Shown here piece by piece: positions 39,022 through 55,502 of a stretch of 64,000 nucleotides of DNA. Below the pieces are notes generated by a model, which saw nothing but the letters and a program-made list of their open reading frames with translations, did not search any database and was not told the origin of the DNA. Location of the stretch: the NCBI GenBank assembly GCA_963762465.1, contig CAVXKS010000011.1:370356-434355 (forward strand), in the 5' to 3' direction. This DNA comes from an uncultured Acidobacteriaceae bacterium. GTDB taxonomy: Bacteria; Acidobacteriota; Terriglobia; Terriglobales; Acidobacteriaceae. Both the position numbers and the translations under genes were made by a program. The first letter of the stretch is position 1, and each line of letters begins with the position of its first letter.

Positions 39022-39097
39022 TGGAGCCGACGAACGGACTTGAACCGTTGACCTGCTGATTACGAATCAGCTGCTCTACCAACTGAGCTACGTCGGC
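39022..39097 (-). tRNA. tRNA-Thr(CGT)
   Basis: GCCGACGTAGCTCAGTTGGTAGAGCAGCTGATTCGTAATCAGCAGGTCAACGGTTCAAGTCCGTTCGTCGGCTCCA: 76-nt cloverleaf with encoded CCA. Upstream TTGGCG-17-TAGAAT. Confidence 0.97.
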
Positions 39098-39173
39098 CTG
39101 CTTTCCTCATTCTAGCGGCAAAGCGAGGAGACGCCAAACCCGCGCAGCTCTGTTGAATTTCGACACTCACGCG

Positions 39174-39272
39174 CTACTCCAGCTCGTCGCGCTCCATGCG
39201 ATCGCCCAGTGCGACAAGTGCGAGCACCGCGATCATCACCGCCGTCGTCAGCCAAACTGCGATCGTAGGCAT
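39174..39272 (-). CDS. small single-TM protein (32 aa), not in the ORF track
   Basis: MPTIAVWLTTAVMIAVLALVALGDRMERDELE*, with AAGGGA 7 nt upstream. Confidence 0.5.
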   Translation of the reverse strand: MPTIAVWLTTAVMIAVLALVALGDRMERDELE

Positions 39273-39476
39273 CGGCAATCCCTTCGGGCCAGTTTCCAGG
39301 CCAGCATTGCCTTCCCACTATCGCCTCTGTGCTACGGTGCAGAAATCCCCCGCCGCCAACTCAGCCGAATCTCCGCTGTTACGTCCTCTGCAACAAAAGG
39401 GCTACGACGTCGGGTCTCCGCCGCTCACACGATCCTCTTCGTCGCAAACCCCGCTCAGCGAAATACTCTTAACGGC

Positions 39477-39555
39477 AAAAGGGCCGCCCGGCAACAGGGC
39501 GACCCTTTCTCTATGGGAGGCAGCTCCAACGGAGGCAAAGCCATCGGAACGCTCT
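39477..39555 (-). ncRNA. candidate sRNA (about 80 nt) with two GCCUCC anti-SD motifs
   Basis: TTGACA-17-TACTCT promoter (39562-39590), no ORF, GC hairpin AAAGGGUCGCCC/GGGCGGCCCUUUU terminator. Confidence 0.6.
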
Positions 39556-39561
39556 GGTGCA

Positions 39562-39590
39562 AGAGTATGTTCGCCCCCGGGTGGTGTCAA
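39562..39590 (-). promoter_or_regulatory. near-consensus sigma70 promoter
   Basis: TTGACA at 39585-39590, 17-nt spacer, TACTCT at 39562-39567. Confidence 0.7.
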
Positions 39591-39710
39591 GACTCAATTC
39601 CCATAAATCGTAAGCTACTGCATGCAAAGGACTTACCGGAAATTATGTGACTTTTCGGTGTTTTCCCCTGTGATCCGTGCGGAAAGCCTTCTGGAATCCC
39701 GTTACTTCGG

Positions 39711-40850
39711 TCAGGAATGAGCATTAGGACCCGGTGCCTCCCAATTGGGCACCGGGTTTTGCGACGACAGGTGAAGACTGAGAAACTCTGGTTCACTCGC
39801 TGCCGGCTTGCCCTGCAACACCCGAATCAGTGCCCGCCCGCCACCGAGGAAGAGTCCCAGCAGCACAGCGGCCGTCATCAGCACGCCCGACAGGATCGCA
39901 ATGCTGGTCAGCAGGCTGAACGCCTTTTGGACCTCGGTATGGAAGACCGGCGGCATGTACTGATCCACGGCGACGATCTGCTTCATGTGCACGTTCTCGA
40001 GAATCGCGCTCGCCTGGTTGCCGGGCAGTGCACCCGAGGCCACCATCACCAGCTCCTGGTCACGCCGAACCCGGGCGTTGGCAAAGCTTGGCCCCAATCC
40101 CTTCACGCCGGTAGAAAACCTCTTCTCAAACGCCTGCGCGATCTGCGGAGTCGGATAGATCAGCATCGTGAGCGTCTCGCGTCCATGCTTCTCGTCGTAG
40201 TTCGCTGTCACAGCCTCGGCGCTCTTGTCCCATCCCAACGCGTTCGCCGGCAGCACGCCGCCCTCTGCCGCGTAGCTCTCCGGTCCCAGCGCGTAACGCA
40301 TGCCGGAAGGCACCAGGTGATCCGCCGGAACGAAACTCGGCAGCAACGGCGCCACACCGGCGCTACCCGTCGTCTTGGGCAGCACCTTCGCAAGCTGATT
40401 CAGAGCCGGCGCATCCGCCGCGCTCGCCGGCGACGCCAGCACCAGCGTGTCGCCATTTGTGAACAGCACCGCACCATCTCCCACCGCATCCGACGAGCCG
40501 ACATCCTTCCCGACGCGCATCTCCGGCCGGACCGCCAGCGTGAACGCGCTGTAAGCCCCCGTGCGGTCACCAAACTCAACCGCCTCCACCCGCATCGTCT
40601 TTCCGCCGCGCGTGTAGGTGTTCACCTCCGACCGCAGAGGTCCAGCCTCCTGCAGTGCAGCCTTGTTGACCGTCGTGAGCGATATCGTTCCCGGCTCCGA
40701 ACTCCCACCCTGCTGCCATCCGCCGAAGTTCTGCGGCAGCAGCTGAACCGGCGGCTCCGTCAGCGTTACACTCTGTGCCCCAGCCTGCGCTACGCCCAGC
40801 GCAAACGAGCACGCCACAAGACCAATTGCAGCTCTATTCCCCGCGCCCAT
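39711..40850 (-). CDS. conserved hypothetical secreted/membrane protein
   Basis: Signal peptide, C-terminal TM, normal codon usage, directly downstream of the amidase. Confidence 0.7.
   Translation of the reverse strand: MGAGNRAAIGLVACSFALGVAQAGAQSVTLTEPPVQLLPQNFGGWQQGGSSEPGTISLTTVNKAALQEAGPLRSEVNTYTRGGKTMRVEAVEFGDRTGAYSAFTLAVRPEMRVGKDVGSSDAVGDGAVLFTNGDTLVLASPASAADAPALNQLAKVLPKTTGSAGVAPLLPSFVPADHLVPSGMRYALGPESYAAEGGVLPANALGWDKSAEAVTANYDEKHGRETLTMLIYPTPQIAQAFEKRFSTGVKGLGPSFANARVRRDQELVMVASGALPGNQASAILENVHMKQIVAVDQYMPPVFHTEVQKAFSLLTSIAILSGVLMTAAVLLGLFLGGGRALIRVLQGKPAASEPEFLSLHLSSQNPVPNWEAPGPNAHS
39729..39760 (+). terminator. plus-strand intrinsic-terminator-like hairpin inside the 3' end of a minus-strand gene
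   Basis: ACCCGGTGCC/GGCACCGGGT perfect 10-bp stem followed by TTT. Confidence 0.45.
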
Positions 40851-40901: not shown

Positions 40902-43190
40902 TCACCGCCCGATGGCAGCCCGCTCCGTCGCGACCGGCTTCTTCACCCCGTTGATCGTCTTCGCGTACCGCGCCACACCGGCGTACAGGCTCTCCGCCAC
41001 ACGCTCGCGATACTCCGGGCGCCGCAGCTCGTCCGCATCAGTCGGGTTCGTAACAAAGCTGATCTCCGCCAGGATCGACGGCATGTTCGCGCCAATCAGC
41101 ACCACAAACGGCGCCTTCTTCACCCCGCGGTTCTTCAGCCCGTCATTGACCTTCGCCAGCCCGCCATACAGCGATTGGTCCACATCCTCCGCCAGTTCGC
41201 GCGACTCATCGATCTTGTCCTTCAGCGCAATCTTCTTGACCAGGTCGCTTAACTCATGCACGCTCTGCGTCGACACCGCGTTCTCGCGGCTGGCCACCTG
41301 CATCGCCTCCGGATCGCTCGTGAAGTTCAGGTAGTAGACCTCGACACCCCGCGCGCTCTCATCCTGCGAGCTGTTCGCATGCACGCTGATGAACAAATCT
41401 GCCTGCGCCTTGTTCGCAATCGCCGTCCGCGTCTCCAGTGGAATAAACGTGTCGTCCGCACGCGTATAAACAATCTCCGCGCCTAACCGGTCGTGCAGCA
41501 GCTTGCCCAGCCGCAGCGCCACGTCCAGCACAACGTCCTTCTCCTCAATCCCCCCCGCGCCCAGCGTGCCCGAATCATGCCCGCCGTGCCCCGCATCGAT
41601 GACAATCCGGCCGATCTTCAAGCCCAGCGCCCGCATCAGCGTCGCCTCACCGTCCGTCGTCGGTGGAGGCGGCTCAGCTGGCTCGCCGGTTACATGGCTC
41701 TTGCTGCGCGACCCCCTCTTCGCACCCGTGCCCGCCGCGCGGTCGACAATCGGCTGCGACGTCGGCCTTCTCGTCGCCTCAATCTTTCCCGGCTGATCGC
41801 TCACCGCCGCAATCTCTACCCCGTCATCAGATGTCTTCGTCGTCACCGAGTTCGGCACCGGCTTCGAGGTCGTCGGCTTCGACGGAATGATCACCCGCGG
41901 CCGCGCCACCGCCTGCTTCGCCCCTCCACCCCCATCCCGCGACGCCAAGCCAAACACCGCGCTCCCATCCGTCACCGGCATCGGCGGCAGGCTCGACACC
42001 TCCGTCGCCCCTCCATGCGACTCACCTGCGTTGGTTGGTTGGTCCGCACCCGGTTCCGTTCCGCCGGCCTGCTGCTCTGCCGCCTGGCTCTTCGTCGTCG
42101 CCTGATCTCTGATCTCTGATCCCTGGTCTCTCTGCTTCCCATGGATATCAATAATCAGCCGGTAAGGATTTGGCAGTAGAAACGCCGAGTACTCCCCAAC
42201 CTGGTGCACATCCAGCACCACGCGCGTCACATCGCCCGAGAATTGCGCCGCCCGGATCCTTGTCAGAAATCCATCATCCGTCACCGCAAAGCTCTTGCCC
42301 ACCAACTGCTGCGCCAGCCGCGCATGGTGCAGGTCAAAGAAGATGCGATCCGGATTCTCGACCCGCGCGGCCTGATACTCCACCGCATCGCCAAGATCAA
42401 TCGCCACCCGCGTATAGCTGGGCGTTGACCAGTGCCGTATCCCCGTGACCGTCGCCATCTTGCGCGGCCGCTCATAATCCGCATCATGGGCCGCGCTCGA
42501 TGGATGCTCCGCATCCACCTCCGCCCCCGGCTCGGGCTTCGCCTCCCCATGTTCGACCGGCGCCTCATCCATCTTCGCCGCCGAAGCCTTCCGATAATGC
42601 TCGCCCTCGCCCCGCCCCGAAGCACCCGGCGTAACCGCCGCTTCCTCTGATCCCTGTTCCCTGATCCCTGATGCCTGCTTTGCCTCGCGCGCCTCTGGGC
42701 TCCGCGGATACTCCCCCTCCAGCAGTCCGCGAACCTTCTTCGCCTCTCCCGAATCATCCGCCGCATCCGGCCCCAGCAGCTCCAGCGCGTGCGCCAGCGC
42801 CCGCGGAGCGATCGATCCGCCTGGATACGCCTTCGCTAAAAACTCATACTGCCCTGCCGCATCTCGCAGTGCCTTGCGATCACTGAACTCGCGCCCTTCT
42901 TCCCCCAGCAGCTCCGCAACCTGCTCCACCGCGCGCGCCGCATGTGCATCGCCGGGATTGCCGTGGTAGATAGCGCGAAACTCATCCATCACATGCGCGT
43001 ACTCAATCTTTGTGTGCGTTCCCTGCGGCTTCGCCTCGAACACCTGCCGGGCCAGCACCGCAGCGTCCCACGCGCTCCCCTCGCTGCGTGCCGCAAACGC
43101 CACCTGCACACCCAGCAACACAAAGGCGCTCGCGGCTAAGCACCTCCAGCCACGGCCGCATCCTCTCCCGCTCTGCCGAGATACACGCAT
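40902..43190 (-). CDS. N-acetylmuramoyl-L-alanine amidase (Amidase_3) with AMIN and TPR-like domains
   Basis: IVIDAGHGGHDSG, IEEKDVVL, FISVHAN, PSILAEISF; AMIN region TRVAIDL..RIFFDL. Confidence 0.92.
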   Translation of the reverse strand: MRVSRQSGRGCGRGWRCLAASAFVLLGVQVAFAARSEGSAWDAAVLARQVFEAKPQGTHTKIEYAHVMDEFRAIYHGNPGDAHAARAVEQVAELLGEEGREFSDRKALRDAAGQYEFLAKAYPGGSIAPRALAHALELLGPDAADDSGEAKKVRGLLEGEYPRSPEAREAKQASGIREQGSEEAAVTPGASGRGEGEHYRKASAAKMDEAPVEHGEAKPEPGAEVDAEHPSSAAHDADYERPRKMATVTGIRHWSTPSYTRVAIDLGDAVEYQAARVENPDRIFFDLHHARLAQQLVGKSFAVTDDGFLTRIRAAQFSGDVTRVVLDVHQVGEYSAFLLPNPYRLIIDIHGKQRDQGSEIRDQATTKSQAAEQQAGGTEPGADQPTNAGESHGGATEVSSLPPMPVTDGSAVFGLASRDGGGGAKQAVARPRVIIPSKPTTSKPVPNSVTTKTSDDGVEIAAVSDQPGKIEATRRPTSQPIVDRAAGTGAKRGSRSKSHVTGEPAEPPPPTTDGEATLMRALGLKIGRIVIDAGHGGHDSGTLGAGGIEEKDVVLDVALRLGKLLHDRLGAEIVYTRADDTFIPLETRTAIANKAQADLFISVHANSSQDESARGVEVYYLNFTSDPEAMQVASRENAVSTQSVHELSDLVKKIALKDKIDESRELAEDVDQSLYGGLAKVNDGLKNRGVKKAPFVVLIGANMPSILAEISFVTNPTDADELRRPEYRERVAESLYAGVARYAKTINGVKKPVATERAAIGR
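42102..42129. repeat. in-frame heptamer repeats (CTGATCT/CTGATCC) inside the amidase CDS
   Basis: Encodes QRDQGSEIRDQ; a second run at 42647-42674 encodes ASGIREQGS. Confidence 0.75.
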
Positions 43191-55341: not shown

Positions 55342-55370
55342 TTGACTCTAACGCGCAAGAAATCTATACC
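55342..55370 (+). promoter_or_regulatory. sigma70-like promoter with AT-rich upstream element
   Basis: TTGACT-17nt-TATACC preceded by AAATTTTCTTTTTTCTC. Confidence 0.55.
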
Positions 55371-55376
55371 TTCGTT

Positions 55377-55502
55377 AGCTGCATTGCAGCGTCGATGATG
55401 TTCATCGATTGGGAGCGCAGGCAAACGCAACCAAGGCAAAGCATCAAACCAAGGCAACACACTCGGGGGACGCCAATAGAGAGCGTCCCCCGAGGTGTTT
55501 TT
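55377..55502 (+). ncRNA. candidate sRNA (about 126 nt) with three AGGCAA motifs
   Basis: Promoter upstream; hairpins GCUGC/GCAGC and UCGAUGA/UCAUCGA; AACCAAGGCAA twice; 12-bp perfect terminator stem plus U-tract. Confidence 0.6.
55456..55502 (+). terminator. intrinsic terminator
   Basis: CTCGGGGGACGC/GCGTCCCCCGAG stem, extended by AACAC/GTGTT, followed by TTTTT. Confidence 0.8.

Follow-up and report, generated by a model that had tools for sequence, protein, structure and literature searches.

AbcR1 and AbcR2 of the Rhizobiales (Agrobacterium, Sinorhizobium, Brucella) are short sRNAs that carry an exposed CUCCC-type anti-Shine-Dalgarno (anti-SD) motif and act on many ABC-transporter targets. 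The CcsR1-4 or 'cuckoo' RNAs of the Rhodobacterales, which are characterised by the CCUCCUCCC motif, consist of tandem hairpin repeats and are co-transcribed with an upstream DUF1127 gene, while RsaE/RoxS of the Firmicutes and other sRNAs with a C-rich seed have multiple metabolic targets. Also relevant here are the sRNA-sponge or decoy pairs, represented by ChiX with the chbBC intercistronic RNA and by GcvB with SroC. The Acidobacteriaceae are among the most abundant soil bacteria; to our knowledge, no sRNA regulon is known in their phylum, and neither an sRNA nor an sRNA-target pair of the family was found to be described in Rfam or in a full-text literature search, the latter returning nothing on acidobacterial sRNAs.

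We have analysed a locus within a 64,000-nt stretch of DNA from an uncultured member of the Acidobacteriaceae (the window), for which a preliminary description had proposed a stand-alone sRNA gene with anti-SD motifs that represses multiple targets. The first part of this proposal is borne out, as the locus has its own predicted promoter and terminator and a C-rich single-stranded linker complementary to Shine-Dalgarno (SD) sequences. In this it resembles AbcR1/AbcR2, which share its short length, its own promoter and terminator and an exposed CUCCC-type motif directed against ribosome-binding sites (RBSs), but it belongs to another phylum, it has no match in an Rfam cmscan at E<=10, and one co-evolving partner is supported here as opposed to the many targets of the AbcR sRNAs. 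A C-rich anti-SD motif in loops or linkers is likewise shared with the cuckoo RNAs, from which the acidobacterial sRNA differs in being single-copy, in having its own promoter, in carrying CUCCC in a linker and in lacking a match in Rfam. Wide conservation within a clade and a C-rich single-stranded motif that pairs with G-rich SD regions are reminiscent of RsaE/RoxS, but the fold is unrelated, there is no match to the model, and multiple metabolic targets are a feature of the RsaE/RoxS side. The likeness to the sponge pairs lies in the Granulicella partner of the sRNA, which appears to be noncoding, keeps the sRNA-binding site and could titrate the sRNA; here, however, the decoy would descend from the sRNA's own mRNA target, and most genera still encode the microprotein in question.

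Searching the whole window against Rfam 15 at gathering thresholds returned tRNA as the sole match and, when positions 39100-39850 were searched at E<=10, the sRNA matched no family, with Acido-1, Acido-Lenti-1, AbcR, cuckoo/CcsR, RsaE, 6S and SRP all included; the Rfam search that the preliminary description had suggested, with the Acido-1 and Acido-Lenti-1 models, is thus negative at this threshold. The best Rfam match, ftsZ-DE (RF02985), resembles the sRNA in its terminator hairpin only, and its 17.5 bits (E = 1.1) against a gathering score of 72.2 do not make the sRNA a member. The reading that we develop below, to which we assign a probability of about 0.72, is that the locus encodes a trans-acting, base-pairing sRNA of the Acidobacteriaceae, approximately 80 nt long, which pairs with the RBS of a microprotein mRNA and likely represses it by occlusion, the partner RNA having become noncoding in Granulicella.

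Results

The sRNA gene lies on the minus strand of the window. Its -35 hexamer, TTGACA (39585..39590), can be read directly from the sequence and is separated by a 17-nt spacer from a -10 hexamer, TACTCT (39562..39567), whose position is conserved; this promoter, an RNA of about 80 nt and a terminator hairpin of 12 bp that carries a U tail are all found where they had first been placed. CTTGACA is without variation in 54 distinct Granulicella copies and in 24 other genera, with the 17-nt spacer free to vary, and CTTGACAC of the -35 region is invariant family-wide. The -10 box reads TAGTAT, TAAGAT or TACTCT within the family, with T1, A2 and T6 kept in every copy. Because TACTCT agrees with TATAAT at three of six positions, a consensus promoter scan did not report the sRNA promoter.

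TGCACC separates the -10 box from AGAGCGUUCCGAUGG, with which the conserved RNA begins at A39555. The predicted transcript of approximately 79 nt (39477..39555), with both ends set by the promoter and terminator, runs in minus-strand order after TGCACC as AGAGCGUUCCGAUGG-CUUUGCCU-CCGUUGGAGC-UGCCUCCCAUAGAG and then AAAGGGUCGCCC-UGUUGCC-GGGCGGCCCUUU-UGC. Stem-loop 1 (39523..39550) is formed by a 5' arm GUUCCGAUGG (39550-39541), a loop CUUUGCCU (39540-39533) and a 3' arm CCGUUGGAGC (39532-39523). The putative seed, CUGCCUCCCAUAG (39511..39523), lies in the single-stranded linker, which has AGAGAAAG/AAAGAAAAG runs, and is unpaired in the minimum free energy (MFE) structure. The intrinsic terminator (39477..39508) has a 12-bp stem, one G.U pair included, made up of AAAGGGUCGCCC (39508-39497), the loop UGUUGCC (39496-39490) and GGGCGGCCCUUU (39489-39478), followed by U39477 and GC; its U tail is short (UUUU and then GC). 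The two copies of GCCUCC, which had been regarded as the anti-SD elements of the RNA, are both present (39536-39531 and 39521-39516), but they do not carry equal weight: the first is conserved, yet half of it is buried in stem 1, and the second reads UUCUCCC outside Granulicella, such that only CUCCC is retained as the family-invariant core of the linker seed. Other genera have CU[A/G]UUCUCCCU, the linker outside Granulicella being ACUAUUCUCCCU(U/A) as against GCUGCCUCCCAU in Granulicella, and the reverse complement of the linker outside Granulicella is AGGGAGAATAG.

Directly upstream of the sRNA and co-directional with it is a gene for a DUF6599 protein (39711..40850, minus strand; Pfam PF20244, E 6e-32), and the co-directional tRNA-Thr(CGT) gene (39022..39097, minus strand), identified by both ARAGORN and Rfam, lies downstream. 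The order of an AmiC-like amidase with an AMIN domain (40902-43190), DUF6599 and the sRNA, all on the minus strand, is found family-wide. The synteny with tRNA-Thr(CGT) suggested in the preliminary description applies to 26 of 57 loci, at distances of 53-1556 nt, and is missing from the rest; the constant neighbour is DUF6599, which lies upstream on the same strand in 53/53 loci where it was found and ends 136-386 nt before the sRNA. One might consider from this neighbourhood that the conserved RNA is a cis-acting element, either an element of the DUF6599 3'-UTR, given the invariable position of that gene, or a leader or attenuator of the tRNA-Thr transcript, given that the tRNA gene follows within 53-105 nt in some genera. 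We consider this highly improbable, as the -35 and -10 boxes of the sRNA are its own and invariant, the downstream gene is variable, with the tRNA up to 1.5 kb away, the tRNA gene is equipped with a promoter-like site of its own (TTGGCG-17-TAGAAT at 39137-39109), and the intermolecular covariation described below indicates a trans partner. No conservation is seen from the DUF6599 stop codon up to the -35 box which, taken together with the invariant promoter, favours an independent sRNA transcript. The association with DUF6599 would then be one of conserved synteny, and the sRNA locus, which has a promoter and an intrinsic terminator to itself, appears to be transcribed as an independent unit.

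Two other features were observed in this region. A 34-aa hydrophobic ORF, MPTIAVWLTTAVMIAVLALVALGDRMERDELE (39174-39278, minus strand), is situated between the sRNA and tRNA-Thr, and tblastn recovered it from its own genome alone among the fetched loci. In one Granulicella subclade (for example, loci L005, L007 and L013), a TGTGGA(A/T)AAC/G..GGGA(C/G)GAAA motif occurs 5-30 nt past the terminator; this motif is absent from the window's own clade.

When window positions 39440-39620 were used as a BLAST query against 24 same-genus genomes, 19 were matched, and the conserved block (query 29-146, window 39592-39475) extended exactly from the -35 box through the terminator. The Granulicella alignments show an invariant -35 box, a variable spacer, a -10 box kept in position and a nearly invariant RNA, set between unrelated flanks. 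A pattern scan of a species-representative genome collection returned 51 loci, mostly from Granulicella or the Acidobacteriaceae. The covariance model R1, derived from the Granulicella copies, detected a single strong copy in the window's own genome at 113 bits, with the runner-up at 25 bits or less, and across the order it matched 264 of 301 genomes and 54 of the 60 genera of Acidobacteriaceae (E 1e-10 to 1e-29), mostly as one copy per genome; in the sister family it gave marginal matches only. A second model (R3), built from a family-wide alignment (A4) and run on 401 genomes of the phylum, scored at least 57 bits in the Acidobacteriaceae only, in 31 of 33 sampled family genomes with one further at 37.9, and 35 bits or less outside the family. 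The concern raised at the outset that the locus might lack conservation has therefore not materialised. On these data the sRNA appears nearly universal in, and specific to, the Acidobacteriaceae, with nothing convincing elsewhere in the phylum, and would represent a genuine, previously uncatalogued RNA family of approximately 80 nt.

In the ViennaRNA fold of the sRNA, an unpaired linker joins a 5' stem-loop of 10 bp to the 12-bp terminator hairpin, and the dG is -41.5 kcal/mol (z = -3.65), a stability that none of 200 dinucleotide shuffles equalled. When 44 distinct Granulicella copies are aligned, pairing holds in 99.9% of base-pair cells and compensatory change is seen at 6 pairs (0/500 shuffles equal), and slid registers of the same alignment give just 37-63% pairing; the corresponding values for A4 are 99.1% and 8 compensatory pairs, again with 0/500 shuffles equal. 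Stem 1 changes from G-C to A-U and from C-G to U-A within Granulicella, and its cells are 99.7% paired family-wide. The terminator has compensatory changes at 7 of its 12 pairs family-wide, and its loop UGUUGCC is nearly invariant.

These helix-preserving substitutions bear on whether the locus might instead be a small protein-coding gene on either strand, or an RNA that sequesters a protein and has no base-pairing role. ORFs are present mechanically on both strands, and proteins might bind at UUUGCCU and UGUUGCC, the two invariant loops. However, indels of 1-3 nt between CCCAUAG and AAAGGG exclude a conserved reading frame on both strands. The transcript had been described as free of ORFs which, strictly, it is not: a 35-aa ORF with a TTG start exists on the same strand (39455-39562), but it is not conserved, is interrupted by indels and loses its start codon, and we rejected it. 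The opposite-strand peptide MGGSSNGG..., which the preliminary description had held up as the coding alternative, was likewise rejected, since there is no ATG outside Granulicella and the 1-3-nt indels break any frame. The sRNA locus would thus seem to possess neither the conserved frame nor the start codon of a small protein-coding gene. As for sequestration, tblastn detected neither a CsrA nor a ProQ homologue in the genome, and protein binding would leave the covariation between seed and RBS unexplained. We give hardly any credence to either form of this explanation.

The partner RNA gene is found on the plus strand of the same window (55342..55502), 16 kb from the sRNA. It has a TTGACT-17-TATACC promoter, 5' hairpins, a pairing site UGGGAGCGCAG (55410-55420), GGCAA motifs (55420-55426, 55434-55442 and 55453-55459) and a long terminator, the sequence between the 5' hairpins and this terminator reading UGGGAGCGCAGGCAAACGCAACCAAGGCAAAGCAUC...AAGGCAACACAC. 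Granulicella genomes with the sRNA also have the partner in conserved form, and by BLAST the same four Granulicella genomes are without both. Across the family, BLAST of the partner reached the terminator region only, and the microprotein/partner loci (L152-L192 and L211-L216) were recovered with a 3'-anchor covariance model (R2) and a pattern search. The homologues in other genera are genes for Lys/Ala-rich peptides of 13-39 aa, MATKKAAKK..., in which a 5' hairpin is followed by (A/U)AGGGAGAAUAG, 3-9 nt and the start codon. The coding sequence begins with AUG GCA ACC AAG AAG GCA GCC AAG (peptide MATKKAAKKPAKKAAKKTAKKK is one example; type MATKKAAKKPAKKAAKK), and the 3' UTR contains GGCAA[A/C] motifs and then the same long terminator as the Granulicella partner. 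Neither Pfam nor NCBIfam has a family for this microprotein, and a search of 11 sister-family genomes for its start pattern returned no match. The partner in the window appears to be a noncoding descendant of this Lys/Ala-rich microprotein gene. Loss of the ORF from the partner has occurred independently in Granulicella and in at least three other lineages, with G104 and G093 (both g13) and G090 (g18) as the cases seen; these ORF-less partners keep GGGAGAAUAG, or its Granulicella counterpart, and have gained GGCAAA motifs.

A small sRNA positioned across the RBS of a very small ORF, and an ORF that has repeatedly been lost, could also be seen as a type I toxin-antitoxin-like pair, in which the Lys/Ala-rich peptide is harmful and the sRNA is a trans-encoded antitoxin. 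Type I toxins are hydrophobic or membrane peptides, with the antitoxin RNA encoded at or beside the toxin locus; the peptide here, by its sequence, would be highly basic and hydrophilic with no membrane segment, and the two genes are unlinked, the distance reaching megabases in other genomes. Both genes are single-copy, vertically inherited and family-wide, and the sRNA is kept where the ORF is gone. An arrangement of this type therefore appears very unlikely, and we return to the sRNA as a base-pairing regulator of the microprotein mRNA.

The pairing was examined by matching the sRNA of each genome to the target of that genome, in a set of 41 genomes that lie outside Granulicella and represent 33 genera. 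In 41/41 of these the linker, CU[A/G]UUCUCCC[U/A][U/A], and the target, (U/A)(A)GGGAGAA[U/C]AG, form a perfect helix of 10-13 bp, with 3-9 nt between the target site and the AUG of the microprotein gene. A compensatory A-U to G-C change is seen in G233, G316 and G113 of g13 and in G323 of g64, whose sRNAs have CUGUU for CUAUU and whose targets have AACAG for AAUAG, and in G413 (g64) an sRNA G stands opposite a target U, a G.U intermediate. A second position covaries in the same manner, sRNAs ending in ..CCCUU occurring with AAGGG and those ending in ..CCCUA with UAGGG. The Granulicella duplex is formed by CUGCCUCCCA of the sRNA and UGGGAG(C)GCAG of the partner; it comprises 6+4 bp, one bulge interrupting the SD-site helix, and represents two further compensatory positions relative to the other genera. 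The compensatory events are independent in about 3-4 lineages only. Local duplex energies range from -18.5 to -22.9 kcal/mol for cognate pairs and from -10 to -12 for cross-genus pairs, and in G103, G192 and G361 the 10-mer GGGAGAATAG has just two locations, the antisense strand of the sRNA gene and the partner. With a conserved unpaired seed, a target encoded elsewhere and compensatory changes between the two, the locus has the features expected of a base-pairing sRNA and would most readily be placed among them.

No sRNA was detected in G284 or G058, both of which are fragmented assemblies where absence is uncertain. The microprotein gene of G284 (L301, G284:C294:52094) has a different RBS, GAGGAGGGAC, which would fit relaxed constraint. 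G058 keeps the target site, UAGGGAGAAUAG (L303, G058:C14:3520), and since this assembly comprises 210 contigs its sRNA may simply be missing.

We also considered whether the sRNA loops pair with the GGCAA motifs of the partner. Loop 1 (UUUGCCU) and the terminator loop (UGUUGCC) match GGCAA[A/C] no better than dinucleotide shuffles do (median p 0.44 and 0.16, respectively), and this idea was dropped. The ORF-less partners form an exception, with matches of 8-9 nt (p 0.01-0.08). UUUGAU with AUCAAA in G298 and UAGCC with GGCUA in G195 are individually suggestive but too short to count.

The proposal of the preliminary description that the sRNA acts on multiple targets is not supported in that form. 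On this reading, the sRNA would be a global anti-SD repressor whose CUCCC/CCUCC pairs with many GGAGG-type RBSs, the partner being mainly a dedicated sponge or decoy that determines the amount of free sRNA. The invariant CUCCC core is the complement of GGGAG, GCCUCCC as the Granulicella seed makes a better generic anti-SD sequence, and the genome encodes an Hfq homologue (C11:212900-213190, 43% identity, E 2e-21). Both RNAs and their pairing outlast the loss of the ORF in Granulicella, G104, G093 and G090, which points to a function beyond peptide repression, and candidate RBS sites do exist in the window's own genome: a GH32-like gene has CUCUAUGGGAGG 5 nt ahead of its AUG, and two genes have GGAGGCAGCUCAAUG. 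Against this, own-genome matches of at least 9 nt to the Granulicella seed are not enriched, with 337 found where approximately 530 were expected. Across 25 genomes GGGAGAATAG occurs 123 times, 25 of these at the sRNA gene (antisense strand), 25 at the partner and 73 elsewhere, and the 73 are near the background set by a reversed-pattern control (48 in the same 25 genomes); the other sites are mostly away from start codons and RBSs, and no gene family is recurrent among them. By the standard of the AbcR sRNAs, for which several conserved mRNA targets would be looked for, we found one: a single RBS is conserved across genera and covaries with the linker, and the flanks of the seed have shifted between genera in step with this one partner only. 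We therefore regard a global repressor as unlikely, and the microprotein mRNA as the target that the comparative data support.

Two individual matches were assessed and set aside as targets. The GH32-like gene (C10:360844-362474, plus strand) lies outside the window and has a twin-arginine-type signal, and CUCUAUGGGAGG is a 12-nt complement of the linker; although it is the best own-genome candidate, it is strain-specific, as none of 24 relatives has an orthologue. Within the DUF6599 ORF, at its 3' end, the plus strand has a 9-bp hairpin with a TTTT tail (39728-39770), the minus strand of which contains UGGGAGGCA, complementary over 9 nt to the linker of the sRNA. As close relatives share neither the hairpin nor the site, the match is probably due to chance. 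A seeded duplex-energy scan of the window's own genome was uninformative, placing the partner in about the top 1% of seed-bearing windows. As duplex energy without accessibility is a poor statistic here, we preferred covariation as the guide to the target.

Discussion

The mechanism that we propose is one in which a sigma-70-type promoter of its own would start the sRNA and an intrinsic terminator would end it, with the linker and its CUCCC core then pairing with the RBS of the mRNA for a microprotein of 13-39 aa. Since the 10-13-bp duplex would cover the GGGAG just before the AUG, binding of the 30S subunit would be blocked, and repression of the microprotein is most likely the primary action. 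It should be noted that repression is deduced here from the position of the duplex alone, which makes it the most likely outcome, and that activation or an effect on stability would also be possible. Transcription of the sRNA and its exact ends are similarly features that we infer from the sequence, as is any involvement of Hfq.

The genomes in which the partner no longer encodes a peptide add a second aspect to this mechanism. Because both RNAs persist after loss of the ORF, the duplex must matter at the RNA level too, and repression of the microprotein cannot be the whole function. In such genomes the noncoding partner may titrate the sRNA, or the sRNA may control the stability of the partner. 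A role of the duplex at the RNA level would also leave room for further targets of the sRNA. A more far-reaching version of this idea, which we offer tentatively and consider rather doubtful, is that of a family-wide RNA-RNA switch in which the microprotein mRNA is the dedicated antagonist of an anti-SD sRNA and has repeatedly turned into a pure decoy, namely in Granulicella and in three further species, two of g13 and one of g18. If this were true, the sRNA would have a second, global role, acting on SD-led mRNAs or on the ribosome itself.

For the Acidobacteriaceae, the reading that we prefer, that of a trans-acting sRNA directed at the RBS of the microprotein mRNA, would provide an sRNA that is present family-wide and for which covariation identifies the primary partner. 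A testable mechanism is offered as well, in which the RBS of a histone-tail-like Lys/Ala microprotein would be occluded by the sRNA. In addition, the family appears to present a natural series of several transitions from a target mRNA to a noncoding partner, and this could make the origin of sRNA sponges experimentally tractable.
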